Positions 37,684-49,486 are shown, counted from the stretch's first letter. The stretch is DNA of 64,000 nt from Hyphomonadaceae bacterium (GCA_041398345.1 JAWKUY010000004.1:125026-189025); one strand, 5' to 3'. The notes: generated by a model not told the origin, from the sequence alone. Numbers and translations: made by a program.

Positions 37684-37741
37684 AAATCCTTCGCGGGGCG
37701 AGCCTCAGACGCGCCGATCAAGGCCCGGCGCCGCGCGCGCG

Positions 37742-38563
37742 TCAAGCCTTGCCCAGATCGCGCGAGCGCTGCGCGGCAGCCGCGACGGCGCGGCGCAGCA
37801 GCGGGCCCAGGCCATCGGCGCTGGCGAGAATATCGAGCGCGGCCTCTGTGGTGCCGCCGGGCGACATCACCTGCTTGCGCAAGACGCTGGCGCTCTCACC
37901 GGTCTCCAGCATCAGCGCGCCAGCGCCCGCCACCGTCGCGTTGGCCAGGCGCACGGCGGTTTCCTTGTCGAGCCCTTCTTGCTCGGCCGCGGCGGCGAGC
38001 ACCTCTGCGAGCAGGAACACATAGGCAGGGCCCGAGCCAGACACCGCCGTTACGGCATCCAGCAGCCGTTCCGCCGTCAGCGGTTCGACAGCGCCCAACG
38101 GCGCCAGCAATTGCTCCACCAGGCGCTTGTCTTGCTCCGTACATGCAGGAGACGCCACATAGGCGGTCACGCCGCGCCCGATGCGCGCAGGCGTGTTCGG
38201 CACGCAGCGCACCACGCGCTGAGCGCCCAGTTCGCGCGAAAGCGTTTCGATGGGAATGCCGGCCATCACAGAAAGGATGCGCGTATCGGGACCAACGAAG
38301 CGGCGCGCGCCGGCGGCGGCGGCGGCGAACATTTGCGGCTTCACCGCCAGCACCACGACGTCCGCGGGCCCCGGATCGGGGGGATTAAGCACCGCCCCGG
38401 CTGCATCAAGTTCGCGCTCAAGTTCGGGATCGAAGTTTGGCTCGACGACTGTGAGCGTCAGCCCCCCGCCCTTGCGTACAGCTTCAAGCCAGCCGCGCAC
38501 GAGCGCCCCGCCCATGGCGCCGGCGCCGACCAGTGCAATGGACGGGGCTTCAAGATCGCTCAC
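37742..38563 (-). CDS. proC: Pyrroline-5-carboxylate reductase
   Basis: GAGAMG, LAVKPQ, PNTPA, SGSGPAY, SPGGTT. Confidence 0.95.
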   Translation of the reverse strand: MSDLEAPSIALVGAGAMGGALVRGWLEAVRKGGGLTLTVVEPNFDPELERELDAAGAVLNPPDPGPADVVVLAVKPQMFAAAAAGARRFVGPDTRILSVMAGIPIETLSRELGAQRVVRCVPNTPARIGRGVTAYVASPACTEQDKRLVEQLLAPLGAVEPLTAERLLDAVTAVSGSGPAYVFLLAEVLAAAAEQEGLDKETAVRLANATVAGAGALMLETGESASVLRKQVMSPGGTTEAALDILASADGLGPLLRRAVAAAAQRSRDLGKA

Positions 38564-39066
38564 GCTTCTCCGCAGGTCTCGAACAGAGCGGCCTGCGATG
38601 CGCTCTCGGCCGACATGCCGCCGAGAATAAGGAAATGAAACGCCGGCTGGAAGCGCTCTGCTGCATCAAGTGCGGCCGCCAGCATGGCCTGAATTTCACC
38701 GATCGAGATTTCATCGCGCCCGATCATCGGCATGGCGTGACGGAAAATGATCGTGCCGTCATCGGACCACACGTCGAAATGCCCAAGCCACAGATTTTCG
38801 TTGATCAGCCCCGCCAGGCGCACGGCCTCGACGCGCCGTGACACCGGCGCCTGAATGTCGAAGCCCAGCGTAAACAGCAGCGCGGGCAGTTCGTGCCGGT
38901 ACGAGAAATAGCCGACCGTCTCGCCCCACGAGCATTTGAACGAGAAATGAACATCGCCGTCCTCGGCGCGTTCACACTGGAAGCGGTCGTCGGAGCCGAT
39001 CACGGCCTCCACCGTCTCCATTGGGTCGGACGGCGCCTCAGCCTCGTCGTCGAGCCACAGATCCAT
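38560..39066 (-). CDS. YbjN domain protein
   Basis: INENLWLGHFDVW motif; conserved neighbour of proC in alphaproteobacteria. Confidence 0.85.
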   Translation of the reverse strand: MDLWLDDEAEAPSDPMETVEAVIGSDDRFQCERAEDGDVHFSFKCSWGETVGYFSYRHELPALLFTLGFDIQAPVSRRVEAVRLAGLINENLWLGHFDVWSDDGTIIFRHAMPMIGRDEISIGEIQAMLAAALDAAERFQPAFHFLILGGMSAESASQAALFETCGEA

Positions 39067-39224
39067 GAGCATCCCCTTCACGCTCAGGGGCCGCCGCGCG
39101 GCCGGAAGATCGTCACGTTCGCCCTTGGGATGCGCGCTTTGCGTCAACGCGTTCGAATCAGACCCCTGCGACTAGGGAACGCGGGAAAAGTTACCGGGGC
39201 ATTTACGCGGGCGCCGCAACACTT

Positions 39225-39845
39225 TCATGGCGTGCAACGCACCACCGCCTTGGCCCATTCAGCACCGCCGAGCGGGCGCCCGGTCGAGGAGGCGCGGCGC
39301 AACTTCTTCAGTGCTTCAGCGCCGACGTCCGTCTCAAAGAACCCGCCGAACCCACGTGGAAATCGCCGCAAAAGCGGCGGTGTACGCACAAGTGCGTCGT
39401 CACGCCCTGACAAATGCGCGCGCACACTGGACCAAGGCCACTCCTCTGCACGCGTGACGAGCCCAGCACGCACCGGATTGAGCCCGACATAGCGGCTGGC
39501 CTGCACGAAATAATCCTCGTCCATCGGATAAGAAGCAAAGCGCCCCTGCCAAAGATAGCCGCGCCAGCCCTCGCGCTTGTTCACCTCGAACGTATAGCGC
39601 CAGTGCAGCGGGGCGATTGCTGCGCGCAGGCCGGCCTCGCCTTTTGGTGTGAGAATGAGGTGAACGTGATTGGGCATGAGGCAATAGCCCCAGCACTCAA
39701 CCTCAGCCTTCGCGCACCATTCCGACGCAAGTTGCAAGTAGCGCAGATAATCGGCCTCACTGAAGAACGTGCGCTGGCGGCGATTGCCGCGTTGCGTGAC
39801 ATGATGAGGCGTGTTGGGCGCCACGATCCTGGCCAATCGCGCCAT
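39225..39845 (-). mobile_element. Y1 HUH transposase (REP-associated tyrosine transposase / IS200-superfamily)
   Basis: MARLAR..HHVTQRGNRRQ, CLMPNHVH (HUH), LWQGRF, RYVGLNPVRAGL (catalytic Tyr), WPWSS; own GGAG RBS. Confidence 0.9.
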
Positions 39846-39867
39846 TTCGCTTTCTCCCGCGCACAAT

Positions 39868-39882
39868 GTACACGTTTTGTTC
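39868..39882 (-). promoter_or_regulatory. Alphaproteobacterial LexA (SOS) box candidate
   Basis: GAAC-AAAACGT-GTAC on the minus strand (GAAC-N7-GTAC), 22 nt upstream of the transposase ATG. Confidence 0.55.
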
Positions 39883-39924
39883 CTCGGCGCAACAGCGTTC
39901 AAAAAGTGTGTGTCACCCTTTCCC

Positions 39925-40487
39925 TCGTCGATGTTGTTAATCCCCCGCAGATAGTTCGCATCAATACCCGCAATGCTCGTTACATTAGGGTTGGCGAGCG
40001 CTGCCTGCAATTCGACCGCACCGAATATCCTTCCTGGGTCCGCGCTTCCAACGAGAGTAGCTATCGGACCACTGAGAGAACCCACGAAACGCTGAGACGC
40101 TTGCCCCCAAAATGACGACGGTGTGTGCCCGGCGAATGACGCACCCCCCAAAAGTTCCCGCTGCAGCGCAGAATTGCCGTCGACGGCATCCAACAGAGCA
40201 TCCTTAAATGCTTGACTCGAAAGCAGCCGTCCCAGCGGCGTATCGTCAATTATCGCAACCTGCGGATTGTTGGTCGCGATGAGTCTTGCAATTTCGTCCG
40301 ACCCAAAAGGGCGGCCACTCGCCGACGTTCGAAATTCACCGCTGTACAGCACCCCCACCCTTCCCGTTGGAGCTCTTGCATCTGTCTGTTGGACCAGCGA
40401 TTCCAACTCCGCCAAACGCTGCTCCGACGGCAGACCATTAATTCGATCAAGCTCATCCAGCGCCTGCTGAAACGTCAAATTTGGCAT
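39925..40487 (-). CDS. ADP-ribosyl cyclase/NAD glycohydrolase-like (CD38-like) toxin domain, C-terminally truncated and in frame with the transposase
   Basis: VLYSG, IIDDTPLG, FWGQASQRF and FGAVE occur in the same order as CD38 LLWS, TLEDTLLG, FWKTVSRRF and FGSVE; lower GC than flanks. Confidence 0.6.
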
Positions 40488-40507
40488 CGTTTATCCCAAG
40501 CAATCGG

Positions 40508-40966
40508 TCAGTCGGAAAAAATGACTTCAACAGGACCAAGAGGCCCGTTGTTTGCGCTGCCGTACGCGCCCAAAGCGCCTTCAATCAGATCGCGCTCTCG
40601 CTCTACAGCCGCCGCACCCACACAACCATTCACGGCGTGGACCTTGAAAACTTGGCGACACTCAAGGTGACCGTTCGAAGTGCGCCCACCGGTGTTCTCT
40701 ATCGACAGAGTCTCACCCCAAAACTGTATGGGGGCCTGCGTAGCATGCCTGAGAATAAAGCGCGAATAGCCGGGCCCGGTTGTTTCGTCGAACAACTCCC
40801 ATCCGCTATCAGGATCCCAAGTTCGCTTCATCTTATAGTCGGATTGGAATGCCACGATATCCTCGCTCGACACTGTTCTTGCAGGCATCTGCACAATCAA
40901 CTGCTGCACGCTTTCGCCACTGTAATCGCGACTCATGATGGCGCAACCATCACCTGCAACAAACAA
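40508..40966 (-). CDS. Hypothetical protein, candidate immunity protein
   Basis: 152-aa lower-GC ORF between hlyD' and the toxin-like ORF, same strand, 20 bp gap to the toxin-like ORF. Confidence 0.55.
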   Translation of the reverse strand: MFVAGDGCAIMSRDYSGESVQQLIVQMPARTVSSEDIVAFQSDYKMKRTWDPDSGWELFDETTGPGYSRFILRHATQAPIQFWGETLSIENTGGRTSNGHLECRQVFKVHAVNGCVGAAAVERERDLIEGALGAYGSANNGPLGPVEVIFSD

Positions 40967-41005
40967 TCAAATGCGCATTCTTCGCCGCCGCGCCACAGTT
41001 TCCCA

Positions 41006-41560
41006 TCACCTTTCCCTCCCCGCTTCTTCCACGCGCCTTTGCAAGGGCGAGAGCAGAAACTCGATGATGCGGCGGCGCCCGGTTTTGATTTCCGCCGTCA
41101 CCGCCAATCCCGCCGTCAGGGCTTGCGCGCGCCCATCGACGTTAATCGAGACGTCGGCCAACTCAATACGCGCGGGGAACACCAGGCCGGTATTTTCATC
41201 TTGCACGGCGTCATGGCTTAGAAACGCCAGCCTTCCGGCGACGACGCCGTAACGCGTGAACGGAAACGCCTCCAGTTTCACCCGCACGTCCTGGCCTTCG
41301 TGAACAAAGCCGGCGTCGCGGTTCAAGACATTGGCCTCCACCACCAAAGTCGAGCCGTCGGGCACGATCACCAGGATCGGATCGGCCGGGCGCAGCACAG
41401 CGCCAACCGTGTGCACCTGCAATTGCTGCACAGTGCCGGTCGCGGGCGCGGTCAACACGGTGCGGGCGTTGCGGTCCTGCGCAATGGTGAGCTCTTCGCG
41501 GCGCAGGCGCGCGGCCGCATCGGCCTCGTTGAAGGCGTCAAGCTCAGGCCGCTTTGGAGT
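41006..41560 (-). pseudogene. hlyD: 5'-truncated HlyD type I secretion periplasmic adaptor
   Basis: LTAPATGTVQQLQVHTVGAV, KLEAFPFTRYG, EIKTGRRRIIEFLLSP; only about 185 C-terminal codons, frame closed by TGA at 41570-41572, no TM anchor. Confidence 0.85.
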
Positions 41561-41562
41561 GC

Positions 41563-41823
41563 TCAGGCCTCAGTCAAAGTCTTCAGCGCGGCCTCCAAAG
41601 CCTCGACGCGCTCACGCAGCGCATCGGCCTCAGCGCGCGCGGCGGCGGCCAATTCCTTCGCCGCCTCGAACTCATCACGGCCGACCAGGTCCATTTCCGC
41701 GACAAAACGATCAGCCTGAGCGCGCATGAAGCTCTTGGCCTCGGCGGAGGCGCCCTGCGCCATCCCCATCGCCCCCGTCATCAAACGGGCCAGATCATCG
41801 AACACCGAGCTTGTCGTTTGCAT
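41563..41823 (-). CDS. ubiK: Accessory factor UbiK family protein
   Basis: MQTTSSVFDDLARL..MDLVGRDEFEA..LRERVEALE; divergent from lgt. Confidence 0.85.
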   Translation of the reverse strand: MQTTSSVFDDLARLMTGAMGMAQGASAEAKSFMRAQADRFVAEMDLVGRDEFEAAKELAAAARAEADALRERVEALEAALKTLTEA

Positions 41824-41916
41824 GTGGACCGATCCTTTGCGCCTACTTAGAAAGCGCCGCGGGGCCGGGCAATGCGGCCAATCAGCTGAAGGTGGGCAAG
41901 CGTGATCGAAGCAGCC

Positions 41917-42951
41917 ATGCAATTCCCCAATCTCGATCCCTCGGCGCTGACGCTGCCCGGCTTTGAGCTCTTTGGCGCGCATCTGGGCCCGTTTCACCTG
42001 CGCTGGTACGCGCTCGCTTACATTGCGGGCCTGGTGTTGGGCTGGCGCTGGATGGTGTGGCTGATCCGGCGCGACAGCTTGTGGGCGCCCGGACGCCCTG
42101 CGATGAGCGTGCCCCAGGCTGACGACTTCCTGTTCTGGGCGACGCTGGGCGTCATCCTGGGCGGGCGCGTCGGTTACGTGCTCTTCTACAAGCCCGACAT
42201 GATCTGGAAGCATCCCGCCGAGCTCATCCAGATCTGGCAGGGCGGCATGAGCTTCCATGGCGGGCTCATCGGGGTGGCGCTCGCGGCGCTCTGGTTCACG
42301 CGCCAAAAGCACGTCAACGAAGAGCAATACGCCAAGCTGGCCGCCAAACACGCTGTTGAAAAAGCCCCTGCTGGAGAAGGCGGCAAGTACGAACGCTTCG
42401 GCGAGGGCAAATGGATTTTGAAAACCGAAGCCGAAGCCGCGCGCGAAAAATCGCGCAGCGACAGCGTTGACCTTTTGCGCCTGGGCGATCTCGCCGCGGC
42501 GGCGGCGCCGCTCGGGCTCTTCTTCGGACGCATCGCCAATTTCATCAACGGCGAGCTGTGGGGCCGCGTCACCGGCGGCCCGTTCGGCATGATCTTCTGC
42601 AATGACCGCATCATCGCGCAGAACGGCTTTTGCCCGGCGGGCGATGAACCGCGCTACCCCAGCCAATTGTTCGAAGCGGCGCTCGAAGGGATTGCGCTGT
42701 TCACCATCATCAACATCGCCACGCTCAAGTTCGATACGCTGCGCCGGCCCGGCATGAATGTTGGCATTTTCCTGGTGTGCTACGGGCTCTTCCGCGCCAT
42801 CTTGGAAACCGTGCGCGAGCCCGATGCGCACATGCCCGAAGCGCTGCGCGGAATTATCACCATGGGCATGCTGCTCTCCATCCCGATGATCATCGCCGGC
42901 GCCTGGCTCATCTACCGCGCGCTGAAGCGCCCGAAACTGGCCGCGGCGTGA
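41917..42951 (+). CDS. lgt: Prolipoprotein diacylglyceryl transferase
   Basis: RWYALAY, GGRVGYVLFY, GGMSFHGG, GRIANFINGELWGR, PSQLFEA. Confidence 0.95.
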   Translation: MQFPNLDPSALTLPGFELFGAHLGPFHLRWYALAYIAGLVLGWRWMVWLIRRDSLWAPGRPAMSVPQADDFLFWATLGVILGGRVGYVLFYKPDMIWKHPAELIQIWQGGMSFHGGLIGVALAALWFTRQKHVNEEQYAKLAAKHAVEKAPAGEGGKYERFGEGKWILKTEAEAAREKSRSDSVDLLRLGDLAAAAAPLGLFFGRIANFINGELWGRVTGGPFGMIFCNDRIIAQNGFCPAGDEPRYPSQLFEAALEGIALFTIINIATLKFDTLRRPGMNVGIFLVCYGLFRAILETVREPDAHMPEALRGIITMGMLLSIPMIIAGAWLIYRALKRPKLAAA

Positions 42952-43991
42952 GCCTCACCCAGAAGCTGATCGAGCACATCCGCGACAACGGCCCGATGAC
43001 GGTCGCGGAATTCATGGCCGCATGCCTCTACGATCCCGAGGATGGCTATTACGCCACGCGCCCCGGCATCGGCGGCGAGAGCGCCGATTTTCTCACTGCG
43101 CCCGAAGCCAGCCAGATGTTCGGCGAACTGCTCGGGCTTTGGTGCGCGCACGAATGGGAAGCGCTGGGCAGGCCCGCCTTCAATCTGATCGAACTTGGCC
43201 CCGGGCGCGGCGTGCTGATGCAGGACGCATTGCGCGCGACGCGCTCGATCGAGGGCTTTCACGAGGCCGCGAGCGTTACGCTGGTCGAAACCAGCGACCC
43301 CTTGCGCGGAGAGCAGTCCGAGCGCGTACCCGGCGCCGAGTGGGCGCCGCGCATCGAAGACGCCCCGCCGGGACCATCGCTAATCATCGGCAACGAATTT
43401 CTCGATTGCCTGCCGATACGCCAGTTCTTCAAGAGCGAAGATGGCTGGCGCGAGAAACTCGTCGGCCTCGATGAGAGCGAACGCTTGACCTTCGGCCTCA
43501 GCGCCGCCCTGCCCGCTCCCGACAGCGAAGATGAGCCCGGCGCCGTGCGCGAAATCGCGCCGGGCCTCGAAAGCATCATCTACGAAATTGAGCGCCGCCT
43601 GCACGAAGCGCCAGGGCGGGCGCTGTTCATCGACTATGGCTATGCGCATCCCGAGGGCGCCGACACGCTGCAGGCGCTGCAGCGGCACAAGAAAGTCGAT
43701 CCGCTGACCGCGCCAGGCGAAGCTGACCTCACCGCCCACGTCGATTTCGCCCGCATCGCCCAGCTGGCGGGCGAGGCCGGTCTCGCGGTGCACGGGCCGA
43801 TCACCCAGGCGGCGTTCCTGCGCGGGCTTGGCATCGAGGTGCGCGCGGAATCGCTGGCGCGCGCCAACCCCGCGCACGCTGAACAGCTTAAGCGGCAGCT
43901 CCACCGCTTGACGCATGAGGACGCGATGGGCGCATTGTTCAAAGTGATATGTCTGTCCAGCCCCAACCTGCCGCCGCCAGCCGGATTTTGA
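42948..43991 (+). CDS. SAM-dependent methyltransferase, MidA/NDUFAF7 family
   Basis: GYY..DFLTAPEASQMFGE, ELGPGRG, NEFLDCLP, IDYG, DLTAHVDF. Confidence 0.9.
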   Translation: MSLTQKLIEHIRDNGPMTVAEFMAACLYDPEDGYYATRPGIGGESADFLTAPEASQMFGELLGLWCAHEWEALGRPAFNLIELGPGRGVLMQDALRATRSIEGFHEAASVTLVETSDPLRGEQSERVPGAEWAPRIEDAPPGPSLIIGNEFLDCLPIRQFFKSEDGWREKLVGLDESERLTFGLSAALPAPDSEDEPGAVREIAPGLESIIYEIERRLHEAPGRALFIDYGYAHPEGADTLQALQRHKKVDPLTAPGEADLTAHVDFARIAQLAGEAGLAVHGPITQAAFLRGLGIEVRAESLARANPAHAEQLKRQLHRLTHEDAMGALFKVICLSSPNLPPPAGF

Positions 43992-47167: not shown

Positions 47168-49486
47168 ATGGTCATGACCACAGCCACGTTCGCCCGCGCC
47201 TGGTTGCACGTTCTCATCGCGCTGACGCTGGGCGCTTGCGCATCAGGCGGCGGGGGCGGCGCAGGATCGGGCGCTGTGTCACCGCCGCCAGCGCCCGCGC
47301 CGCTGCCTCCGCCTCCTCCACCGCCGCCTCCAGTGGCCGTGCCGCCATTGCCGCCGCCAGCGGCGGTGGGAACTTTTCCGGGCAGTTCGTCGGCGGAATA
47401 CACCAACAATTGGGGTGTTGAAGGCGTCAACGCTGACGCAGCCTGGCAGTACGAGAATGCGCACGGCGAAGGCGTCCTCATCGGCATCATCGATGATGGC
47501 ATCATCTTCGATCACCCGGAGCTGCAAGGGCGGATTTCGGCGGAATCCACCGACATCGTGCCGGGCCGCAACGCGCTGGTCTCCACCAACACGCATGGCG
47601 CCGAGGTTTCCTCTATCGTCGCCGCTAATTTCAATGGCGGCCAAACGGTCGGCGTTGCTTTCGGATCCACAATCCTGGCCGTGCGCGCCGACAACGGCAG
47701 CGAAGGTTTCAACGGCGGCGATCTCGCGGCGGCGTTGGATTACGCCGTCGCGCATGGCGTGCGGGTAGTCAATTTCTCGCTTGGAAGCAGCAACCCGACG
47801 CCCGGCGTGCTGCAGGATGCCATCCAGCGCGCGACGAATGCCGGCGTCATCATCGTGGTTTCAGCGGGCAATGACGGGCCTTCGGCCACGGAGCCCAATT
47901 ATCCTGGTTTTCTTGCGACCGATCCAACTGTTGCGCATGGCCTTGTGCTGGTCGCGGGCGGCACAAATCCCGATGGCAGTTTCAACACCCGCTCCAATCC
48001 AGCCGGCAGCACGCTTCAGTATTATCTGACCGCGCCGGGCTGGGGCATCGTTGTGCCCGACTATGGTCCGCCAGGACCTCTTCCCGGGTTTCAGCGCTGC
48101 TGGCCCGATCCAAACAACTGCACCGGGCTCGTCGAAATTCAGGGCACGTCCTATGCGTCCCCGCACGTCGCCGGCGCCATCGCGATACTGATGAGCGCGT
48201 TCCCTGGTCTCACGTCGCAGCAAGTTGTGCAGATACTCCTGCAGTCGACAGACGACACAGGCGCGGCCGGCGTTGATTCAGTCACCGGGCGCGGGCGGCT
48301 CAATCTCGGTCGCGCCTTCCAGCCCATAGGCACGGTTGCAGCGCCGCTCGTCGCCGGATTGCCCCACGTAATCGCCAGCACTCCCCTCGGGGTTGTTGGC
48401 GCGGCCTTTGGCGATGGCATGAGCGATGATCCCGGCGAATGGGCCGTTGCCGGCTTTGACGCCTTTGGTCGCACTTACGCGCTAGACCTCTCCAGCAACT
48501 GGCGCCGCCCTGCGCCTGGCCCCAGCCTCATCGCCCAGGCGCCCGCGCTCTGGAGCCAAGCGCACGCCAGCATCGCCTCCATGCAGATTGCGCCGGCGGA
48601 CGACGCCATGCCGGCCTCGCTGCGCCTGCAAATATCGCGAGAGGATATCGAACGCCCCGCGGTGCGCATCCAAGCACAGCTCGCGCCTGATTTGACGCTT
48701 TCGTTCGCAGCGGACGGCGCAGACGCCGCCGCCGTCGAAACGCCCGCCTCCGGCGGTCATCTCGCCTATCTCAACGCCGATCAAACCGTGCGCCTGACGC
48801 GGGCGTTTGGCGAACGCCTGACTGTTTCGGCAGCGCTTGAAACCCGCTCGAACGACCTGCTTGCGAGTGAGCAAGCCGGGCGCTCCGCCCAGTTGATCGA
48901 CGCAACGCTCACGCTGGGGAGCAACGCGTTCACGCTTAGCTATGGCCAGATGAGGGAAGAGCGCGGCCTGCTTGGCTTAACGTGGGACGATGCGCTCGGC
49001 GGCGCATCCGCAGGCGAAGTGCGTTTCGGGGCGCTATCGGGGCAGTTCGCCCTTCCGGCGGGCTGGCGCCTGGCCCTCAGCGGCGAATTCGGCGCCGGTG
49101 CGCTGGCGCCCCGCGGCTGGTTGAGCGGCGACGTCGCGACGACCGCATTCTCGCTCGAAGCGCGCCGGCGTGCGCCGTGGCTGGGCCTGAGCGGCGATAA
49201 TTTCTTGTCGCTCTCGGTGCGGCAGCCCTTGCGGATTGAATACGGCCTTCTGAGCGCACTGCTTCCAACCGCGACCCGCTACGGGCGCGAAAGCCTGACG
49301 TACGAGCCGCGCTTGATCGACGTCACCCCGTCTGGGCGCGAACTCCAATTCGGCGTGAGCTACACGCACGCGCAATCCAATTCAGCCTCGGCATTCCTCG
49401 ACGCCACGCTCATTCACGATCCAGGGCATGTCGCCGGGGCGGACGATCAAGCGCTGGTGCGCGGCGGCTTACGGATGCGGTTCTAA
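47168..49486 (+). CDS. S8 subtilisin-like serine peptidase lipoprotein with C-terminal beta-barrel-like domain
   Basis: Lipobox LGAC, Pro-rich linker, IIDDG / THG / SAGN / GTSYASPHVAG, terminal Phe. Confidence 0.85.
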   Translation: MVMTTATFARAWLHVLIALTLGACASGGGGGAGSGAVSPPPAPAPLPPPPPPPPPVAVPPLPPPAAVGTFPGSSSAEYTNNWGVEGVNADAAWQYENAHGEGVLIGIIDDGIIFDHPELQGRISAESTDIVPGRNALVSTNTHGAEVSSIVAANFNGGQTVGVAFGSTILAVRADNGSEGFNGGDLAAALDYAVAHGVRVVNFSLGSSNPTPGVLQDAIQRATNAGVIIVVSAGNDGPSATEPNYPGFLATDPTVAHGLVLVAGGTNPDGSFNTRSNPAGSTLQYYLTAPGWGIVVPDYGPPGPLPGFQRCWPDPNNCTGLVEIQGTSYASPHVAGAIAILMSAFPGLTSQQVVQILLQSTDDTGAAGVDSVTGRGRLNLGRAFQPIGTVAAPLVAGLPHVIASTPLGVVGAAFGDGMSDDPGEWAVAGFDAFGRTYALDLSSNWRRPAPGPSLIAQAPALWSQAHASIASMQIAPADDAMPASLRLQISREDIERPAVRIQAQLAPDLTLSFAADGADAAAVETPASGGHLAYLNADQTVRLTRAFGERLTVSAALETRSNDLLASEQAGRSAQLIDATLTLGSNAFTLSYGQMREERGLLGLTWDDALGGASAGEVRFGALSGQFALPAGWRLALSGEFGAGALAPRGWLSGDVATTAFSLEARRRAPWLGLSGDNFLSLSVRQPLRIEYGLLSALLPTATRYGRESLTYEPRLIDVTPSGRELQFGVSYTHAQSNSASAFLDATLIHDPGHVAGADDQALVRGGLRMRF

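Follow-up and report, generated by a model that had tools for sequence, protein, structure and literature searches.

A CD38/Tac1-like toxin head and its probable immunity gene in a probably displaced cassette beside a RAYT transposase gene of a Hyphomonadaceae bacterium

We analysed a 64,000-nucleotide stretch of DNA from a Hyphomonadaceae bacterium (GCA_041398345.1, JAWKUY010000004.1:125026-189025; hereafter the window), which belongs to a 2.9-Mb metagenome-assembled genome (MAG) of 30 contigs and 85% completeness. In the spacer between a ybjN-family gene and a ubiK-like gene, the window harbours an insertion (39176..41562) with a GC content of 0.60, versus 0.65 around it. Read along the minus strand, which carries all of its genes, the insertion consists of a 3′ fragment of hlyD, the adaptor gene of a type I secretion system (T1SS), here called hlyD'; a small gene, imm, that probably encodes an immunity protein; a toxin head of the ADP-ribosyl cyclase (ARC) type, ARC'; and the gene of a REP-associated tyrosine transposase (RAYT). 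The last two share one open reading frame (ORF; 39225..40487, minus strand), the product of which is a 420-amino acid chimera of ARC head and transposase.

ARC' (39925..40487, minus strand) covers amino acids 1-188 of this ORF and has the extent of a complete CD38/Tac1-like ADP-ribosyl cyclase-fold toxin head, the gene being truncated just 3′ of the domain. An earlier reading made from the DNA sequence alone (the sequence-only reading) had noticed four CD38-like motifs and predicted an ARC enzyme with an intact catalytic glutamate. Translation of the ORF confirmed all four motifs, namely VLYSG (amino acids 46-50), IIDDTPLG (79-86), FWGQASQRF (126-134) and FGAVE (155-159), and placed the codon of E159 at 40013..40011. 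Taken together, on sequence grounds, this resemblance is far beyond chance.

When amino acids 1-215 were compared with all PDB sequences using phmmer, only two chains were matched, both over the segment covering FWGQAS and FGAVE: 9OUF (Tac1; E 1.2e-5, amino acids 121-177) and 9RO8 (the Pantoea ananatis ARCtox; E 0.097). An exhaustive HMMER search of 1.84 billion representatives yielded 318 cluster representatives related to ARC', and from an alignment of 36 of these a family profile (A1) was built. Against the PDB, this profile matched Tac1/9OUF at 2.8e-12, ARCtox/9RO8 at 5.9e-12 and the Aplysia ADP-ribosyl cyclase (1LBE) at 1.3e-4; the matches to CD157 (E 0.5) and CD38 (E ~2) were non-significant. 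S131, G140, E159 and N166 are invariant in the A1 alignment, Y48, S49, G50 and F155 are nearly so, and W127, present in ARC', is kept in most family members. Searches of Pfam and NCBIfam gave no match for the head.

The AlphaFold2 model of the ARC' head reached a predicted local distance difference test score (pLDDT) of 87.5 and a predicted template modelling score of 0.85. The Foldseek search that the sequence-only reading had proposed returned the ARC fold as expected: the top 50 matches were all ARC-family structures or the MARTX domain RDTND, with modest E-values starting at 2e-3. VIA-align gave Z-scores of 9.7 for Tac1, 9.5 for ARCtox, 8.7 for CD38 and 8.0 for the Aplysia cyclase, and the alignments covered 135 residues at 3.6 Å (9OUF) and 115 at 3.0 Å (9RO8). 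Z-scores of 8-10 alone are middling; here the list of matches is homogeneous and supported by sequence, at an identity to the solved toxins of just 21-27%. Sequence profile, predicted model and fold search bear out the ARC/CD38-fold identity, and by both sequence and model ARC' is a true member of the bacterial ARC (Tox-ARC) branch with a catalytic centre predicted to be intact, E159 being invariant in the family and aligned with E573 of Tac1.

The candidate active-site residues of ARC' are Y48/S49, D81/D82, W127, S131 and E159. NAD+ or NADP+ would sit in the cleft between the two lobes, where E159 (Tac1 E573, CD38 E226) would be the essential catalytic residue, joined in the active site by W127 (Tac1 W540, CD38 W189), S131 (CD38 S193) and one of the acidic residues D81/D82. 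In the phmmer alignment, counted along the chain, E159 pairs with E573 (residue 130 of the 9OUF chain) and W127 with W540. The E573A mutant of Tac1 is inactive and non-toxic (PMC12356396). By analogy with these relatives, we infer that ARC' would hydrolyse NAD(P)+, with ADP-ribose as product and depletion of the cofactor as the likely outcome.

The second acidic position (CD38 E146, Tac1 E516) is occupied by Asp in ARC', and its column varies between D, N, G, T and S in the family. The register at this point is ambiguous: HMMER pairs IDDT with the IDDT of Tac1, which lies downstream of E516, and a gap-free register places D81 on E516. D81 is probably the counterpart of CD38 E146 and Tac1 E516, and the product of ARC' could be ADP-ribose or cyclic ADP-ribose (cADPR). 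ARC' could have the fold without being an NAD(P)+-depleting toxin, and act as a cADPR-type signal cyclase like Nac1 or on another nucleotide. This subfamily does not keep Glu at the position which in CD38 and Tac1 promotes full hydrolysis, Nac1 with Ala at this position makes cADPR and is non-toxic (PMC12356396), and the identity to the solved toxins is low. We nevertheless regard this alternative as unlikely, since the MARTX RDTND, with Asp at the second acidic position, is still an NAD(P)+ hydrolase (PMC11266601), the proteins on which related heads ride have export signals characteristic of antibacterial effectors (a C-terminal XVIPCD signal, a virD4 neighbour), and a small gene lies directly upstream in every locus examined, which fits a toxin-immunity pair; Nac enzymes lack such a partner (PMC12356396).

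The second half of the chimera, RAYT (39225..39845, minus strand; amino acids 215-420), is a complete REP-associated tyrosine (Y1/HUH, IS200-like) transposase of 206 amino acids with its own start at M215 (MARLARIVAP...). It was matched by Pfam Y1_Tnp (PF01797) at 3e-10 with 40.7 bits (cut-off 23) and by NCBIfam NF047646 at 4.3e-18 with 65.6 bits, below the cut-off of 80 for that model. The HUH motif (HVH of PNHVHLIL) and the catalytic Tyr (in SRYVGLNP) are both visible in the sequence. RAYT is single-copy in this genome, and copies of 75-89% identity are present in five relatives of the genus. We aligned the upstream region of this copy with those of four copies from genus relatives. Conservation across the five regions begins at ~39922-39929, with a conserved RAYT left-end motif, GGAAAGGGTGACACACACTTTT, at 39924..39901. 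Position 39925 is the true end of the toxin-derived sequence and the RAYT left end begins at ~39924. Homology of the ORF to P0002, its closest relative, ends at about amino acids 188-194. Because the start of the RAYT unit and the end of the P0002 homology coincide, the toxin gene was cut directly 3′ of the complete domain, after about codon 188. What follows, up to M215, is the RAYT leader (39846..39924, minus strand; amino acids 189-214), through which the toxin ORF reads in frame; these 26 linker codons are transposase leader, in frame by accident.

In this leader, a GAAC-N7-GTAC site (39882..39868, minus strand), ~20-25 nt upstream of the RAYT start, resembles an alphaproteobacterial LexA box. 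Its core GAACAAA..G.GTACA is invariant in all five aligned RAYT copies (window, L022, L023, L025 and L026) and is then followed by ATG, which suggests DNA-damage control of RAYT. The RAYT flanking motif GGTGACACACAC was not amplified: the 2.9-Mb MAG contains three exact copies, and at up to one mismatch five copies versus three for the reversed control, in an assembly in which repeats may be under-assembled.

The frame is open without a break from the ATG of ARC' to the stop of RAYT, an antidote-like gene lies just upstream, and at least three relatives have RAYT in the vicinity of hlyD' fragments and cargo that looks toxin-like. One could read this as a functional ARC'-RAYT fusion protein, or as an addiction module of toxin-antitoxin-like type through which the transposase element is stabilised or regulated. 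We consider both very unlikely. The linker codons are a conserved non-coding RAYT leader that includes a regulatory box and its own ATG, the four other genus copies of RAYT in the comparison are not preceded by this ARC head (tblastn detected no ARC in those loci, and their upstream sequences are unrelated), and an in-frame junction is expected by chance in one of three cases.

Between hlyD' and ARC' lies imm (40508..40855, minus strand), encoding a 115-amino acid cytoplasmic protein that is the probable cognate immunity protein. The gene has a GTG start and an AGGA Shine-Dalgarno-like motif, and its stop is located 20 nt before the ATG of ARC'. Homologues of imm, with the signature MAFxSD..RTxDPExGWEL, were found directly upstream of ARC-headed genes in L013, where the order is hlyD-imm-ARC, twice in the metagenome contig L014 and on the contig of P0159. 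In L014 (9581-24389), two ARC-headed RTX genes (1462 and 4933 amino acids) stand in tandem, each with its own preceding imm-like gene of 115 amino acids, in a neighbourhood rich in PIN/BrnT toxin-antitoxin pairs. Further homologues are located directly after hlyD in L030 and in L027-L029. In the latter three (contexts of P0160), the imm homologue follows an hlyD-like gene with no ARC toxin next to it, and in L027 a SUKH-family immunity gene is near; these look like orphan immunity genes kept after loss of the toxin.

A second family of small genes without a Pfam family occupies the same upstream position in X. campestris, Methylomagnum and Massilia, sometimes in tandem. In X. campestris (L037), two tandem paralogous genes of 152 and 153 amino acids, 59% identical, precede the ARC gene and are candidate immunity genes of this second family. 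We do not claim the two families as one, as hhalign aligned them at E 0.063 with a probability below 1%. In every locus examined, a small gene without a Pfam family is located directly upstream of the ARC head. The imm protein lacks a signal peptide, in keeping with a toxin that would have a cytoplasmic substrate, and as an upstream-encoded cytoplasmic protein it would keep the producer alive as an immunity factor. Its predicted model is confident (pLDDT 85). NCBIfam gave no match for imm, and a word-indexed search with imm alone returned only imm itself.

Upstream of imm, hlyD' (41006..41554, minus strand) corresponds to amino acids 285-466 of 466 of a T1SS adaptor protein and to positions 245-422 of 422 of TIGR01843. 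It is a stop-to-stop frame of 187 amino acids without a start codon and without the N-terminal half. In both DNA and protein it shares 98% identity with the 3′ end of the genome's sole complete type-I hlyD (G000:C13:9330-10730), and the two sequences diverge immediately past the stop codon. The sequence-only reading had placed the ARC gene downstream of hlyD in a secretion cassette; hlyD sequence is indeed present upstream, as a 3′ fragment only, and there is no hlyB locally. Its further proposal, a T1SS/RTX substrate with a C-terminal secretion signal, fails for this copy: the 420-amino acid ORF has no RTX repeats (no HemolysinCabind match) and its C-terminal half is a transposase, so that the ARC' product cannot be a T1SS substrate.

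The complete T1SS locus on contig 13 (L012, 7092-20000) encodes HlyB (745 amino acids), HlyD (466 amino acids), a 231-amino acid lipoprotein and an RTX protein of at least 2810 amino acids with a different head. The first 600 residues of this RTX protein had no Pfam match, and the lipoprotein had no match in the PDB or Pfam. By eye alone, its N-terminus resembles the Smlt3024/FrpC head type. The cassette in the window may have been derived from this locus, or may be able to recombine with it; the locus now has another head and an upstream lipoprotein gene.

To place the insertion, the region 37700-43000 was compared with 30 genomes of the genus. The native left flank is the ybjN-family gene (38560..39147, minus strand; Pfam YbjN, 2.7e-21), which is kept in all genus relatives, and the native right flank is the ubiK-like gene (41563..41826, minus strand), the stop codon of which lies ~20 nt from the start of the hlyD' homology. 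The proC-ybjN and ubiK-lgt blocks occur in nearly all 30 genomes and are adjacent where they lie on one contig, with a spacer of ~60-220 bp (64-213 bp in five computed pairs). In genus relatives with both flanks on one contig, the 2.4-kb block is absent between ybjN and ubiK. RAYT is found elsewhere in five relatives, in three of them near other hlyD 3′ fragments with different cargo. Several such fragments are dispersed over genus relatives, and one has a frameshift; the complete genome G042 contains such a fragment, and its only full-length hlyD matches are distant (31% identical). An orphan block in G045:C8 (L023, 7445-11521) consists of hlyD' (amino acids 354-466), three lipoprotein-like genes and a 359-amino acid HExxH and RTX protein, followed by RAYT. 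Blocks of hlyD', cargo and RAYT recur in the genus, and RAYT may be their mover or just a frequent neighbour. As an unrelated observation, a 772-amino acid ORF further along the window (47168-49486, plus strand) resembles, by eye, a subtilisin-like serine protease with a long C-terminal extension; its N-terminal region is rich in Pro and Ala.

We also checked the assembly. The window stretch is present in wastewater metagenome runs of one study, and separately built Logan contigs agree at every base with the window across 39781-40075 (ARC'/RAYT junction), 40811-41099 (hlyD'/imm region) and 41442-41658 (hlyD'/ubiK junction). The contig bridging hlyD' and ubiK stems from an RNA library, and the RNA run covers 41442-41658 only. 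The sample also contains the contig-13 version of hlyD, as five variant bases and a loose end at 41013 show. An assembler could have joined strains through the 540-bp hlyD repeat, and the presence of both hlyD versions, the fragmented state of the MAG and the lack of contig coverage at the left junction are all compatible with such an artefact. We hold it to be highly improbable, since a single contig carries the block together with syntenic native genes on either side, and separate contigs bridge three of its regions without mismatch.

The sequence-only reading had suggested searching for full-length homologues with C-terminal RTX repeats, and these were found: relatives carry the ARC head N-terminally on RTX proteins encoded after hlyD. 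In ~145 of the best 150 relatives, the ARC domain is N-terminal, starting within the first 60 residues, on proteins of up to 4651 amino acids. Among the 87 relatives of at least 400 amino acids, 33 contain at least three RTX nonapeptides and four more are RTX proteins by Pfam; 16 of the 87 contain XVIPCD, the C-terminal signal of the Xanthomonas-type type IV secretion system (X-T4SS), which kills bacteria. Two relatives carry a Tle1-like lipase and one is a VgrG. Several RTX relatives list a self-processing module (SPM), which suggests that the head may be released after export upon a Ca2+ trigger. Named relatives are annotated merely as "calcium-binding protein" or "peptidoglycan-binding protein", and the head has no precomputed Pfam domain in them. 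In Xanthomonas campestris (L037, CP155953, 3309-9690), an ARC-headed 'peptidoglycan-binding protein' of 1229 amino acids is encoded directly after virD4, the gene of the T4SS coupling protein. In the intact relatives, the head would thus form the N-terminus of large proteins exported by C-terminal signals, via RTX (T1SS) or XVIPCD (X-T4SS). The ARC profile was not found in the genomes of 40 relatives and, among 400 other genomes of the class, matched in just six, in most cases a short ORF of canonical ARC-like type. A search of genome contigs for related loci with the single ARC' protein found nothing.

Taking these data together, we consider it probable that the block is an orphan or displaced, non-exportable toxin-immunity cassette, with an intact ARC head, a truncated toxin gene and an accidental in-frame fusion to RAYT. 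The toxin gene would have been cut after about codon 188 by the RAYT left end and would since read by chance into the transposase. The part of the block still useful to the cell is most likely imm.

Several points weigh against this interpretation. The Pfam model PF02267 (Rib_hydrolayse) left the ARC' protein unmatched even at E <= 1 and found no member in the genome; the model is built on larger eukaryotic enzymes, and it matched one distant ARC' homologue at 1.4e-5. None of ten imm homologues matches any Pfam family, including Imm74, at E <= 0.1, the imm model has no fold match in the PDB (best E 0.13), and the role of imm as the probable immunity protein of the ARC head is deduced from gene position. 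The function predicted for this subfamily would follow that of solved relatives, and the variable second acidic position with its ambiguous register counts on the same side. The left junction of the insertion (39101-39295) is uncovered by public contigs, and the runs that cover the other regions are probably the MAG's own source, so that they provide consistency rather than independent proof.

The main competing explanation is that the block is a pure relic, in which ARC' and imm are neither expressed nor selected and the DNA is decaying after a rearrangement of the T1SS locus. The truncated toxin gene and the lack of a start codon in hlyD' would fit this, as would the scattered hlyD 3′ fragments of the genus relatives, including the frameshifted one. 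A scan of 39000-41700 found no sigma-70-like promoter, and a terminator scan was below expectation. Set against these are the state of ARC' and imm, in which all invariant or near-invariant residues are intact and internal stops and frameshifts are absent, the Shine-Dalgarno-like motif that imm keeps at its position 20 nt from ARC', and the hlyD' sequence, which still resembles its twin at 98% identity. This last value points to a recent insertion event, for which decay cannot yet be judged. We therefore consider a pure relic possible, although clearly the less probable explanation compared with a displaced cassette.

Bacterial ARC toxins were characterised in 2025 for the type VI (T6SS) and type VII (T7SS) secretion systems and for contact-dependent inhibition (CDI). 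The best match to ARC' in both sequence and structure is Tac1, the LXG toxin of the Streptococcus parasanguinis T7SSb (9OUF; Colautti, Kim & Whitney 2025, PMC12356396). Both have a minimal two-lobed ARC core with aligned catalytic Glu and Trp, and a dedicated gene beside the toxin, which is an immunity gene for Tac1 and a candidate one here. In Tac1, the ARC domain is C-terminal behind the LXG trafficking domain and an Imm74-family immunity gene lies downstream, whereas ARC' is N-terminal, its candidate immunity gene is upstream and by Pfam unrelated to Imm74, its family's carriers have C-terminal signals, and the equivalent of E516 is Asp or variable. The T6SS toxin PAAR-ARCtox of Pantoea ananatis (9RO8; Martinkus et al. 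2025, PMC12605009) shares fold and motifs with ARC' and differs in that its ARC domain forms the C-terminus of a PAAR protein. This toxin hydrolyses NAD(P)+, and a small partner, which according to prediction blocks the cleft, neutralises it; the survey in the same paper lists PAAR, Rhs, FIX, LXG, EsxA, TPS, pyocin, Flp and Fn3 as partners of ARC domains, with no RTX or XVIPCD (PMC12605009). The MARTX DUF1/RDTND of Vibrio vulnificus (8KA1, PMC11266601) is likewise CD38-like and RTX/T1SS-linked, has Asp at the CD38 E146 position and appeared in the Foldseek list as a much weaker structural match. Unlike ARC', it is an internal effector domain that is released by the MARTX cysteine protease, activated by host calmodulin via the neighbouring RID domain, directed against eukaryotes and devoid of an immunity gene.

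The sequence-only reading did not recognise a T1SS-exported ARC toxin of a Caulobacterales-like organism as described, which holds in part. The ARC toxins of 2025 were already known, and T1SS-exported MARTX has an internal CD38-like NAD glycohydrolase (NADase) domain (PMC11266601); in the searchable literature, no RTX or XVIPCD protein with an N-terminal ARC head and an upstream immunity gene was found. The two ARC papers of 2025 (PMC12356396, PMC12605009) do not mention T1SS, RTX or XVIPCD, nor does the Tox-ARC description of Zhang et al. 2012 (PMC3482391), and a literature search for XVIPCD together with ARC found nothing. The chemistry of ARC toxins is thus known; what the search did not find is a description of such domains at the N-terminus of T1SS and X-T4SS carriers, with the immunity gene upstream.

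Two known arrangements resemble the module as a whole. The Smlt3024/FrpC heads (Bayer-Santos et al. 2019, PMC6759196) are one head shared by XVIPCD effectors of X-T4SS, the N-termini of many large RTX proteins and the C-terminus of one VgrG; an immunity gene lies beside it. They are a different head family, and their immunity proteins are periplasmic lipoproteins (FrpD-like), fitting a periplasmic target, whereas the candidate immunity protein here is cytoplasmic. We rejected this family as the identity of ARC', because the Smlt3024 sequence in S4 Fig of PMC6759196 is unlike ARC'. The 'modular repeats' of Xylella fastidiosa (Gambetta, Matthews & Syvanen 2018, PMC5935956) consist of hlyB-hlyD, then modules of an ORFan small gene plus a truncated RTX N-terminus, and then a full RTX gene; homology is lost abruptly at the end of the fragments and N-termini are swapped between strains. 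By analogy, the pair of imm and ARC' looks like one such module. The Xylella modules remain within the operon, ahead of the full RTX gene, and they were given no toxin-immunity or enzymatic reading (PMC5935956). The module in the window, unlike those of Xylella, includes a 3′ stub of hlyD, is terminated by a RAYT unit and sits at an unrelated chromosomal site.

CDI and Rhs loci contain orphan toxin-immunity modules, in which truncated toxin pieces, immunity genes and a conserved upstream stub form displaced or reserve cassettes. As in these, a truncated toxin piece is kept here with its probable immunity gene and a conserved stub. The polarity is reversed: here it is the 5′ head, with a candidate immunity gene upstream, that varies, and the stub derives from the neighbouring hlyD, not from the toxin's own conserved region. 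We tentatively propose, as a possibility that we would not yet favour, a mirror-image polymorphic toxin system for C-terminal-signal routes (T1SS and X-T4SS). Interchangeable N-terminal heads with upstream immunity genes would be swapped into the resident RTX gene via the hlyD 3′ homology arm, and displaced or reserve cassettes of hlyD', imm and head would travel with the LexA-box RAYT.

The copy in the window is probably a broken leftover with small biological weight of its own; its value would be that of a dated snapshot of how such a cassette is cut, moved and retained. ARC/CD38-fold NADases were shown to be antibacterial only in 2025, and only as C-terminal tips on T6SS, T7SS and CDI carriers, and the family described here appears to place the same chemistry N-terminally on hundreds of unannotated calcium- or peptidoglycan-binding proteins exported by T1SS or X-T4SS. 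If true, this would provide a function for a large set of RTX proteins, X-T4SS effectors and their upstream orphan small genes, and the puzzling "modular repeats" of RTX operons would make sense as toxin-immunity units.

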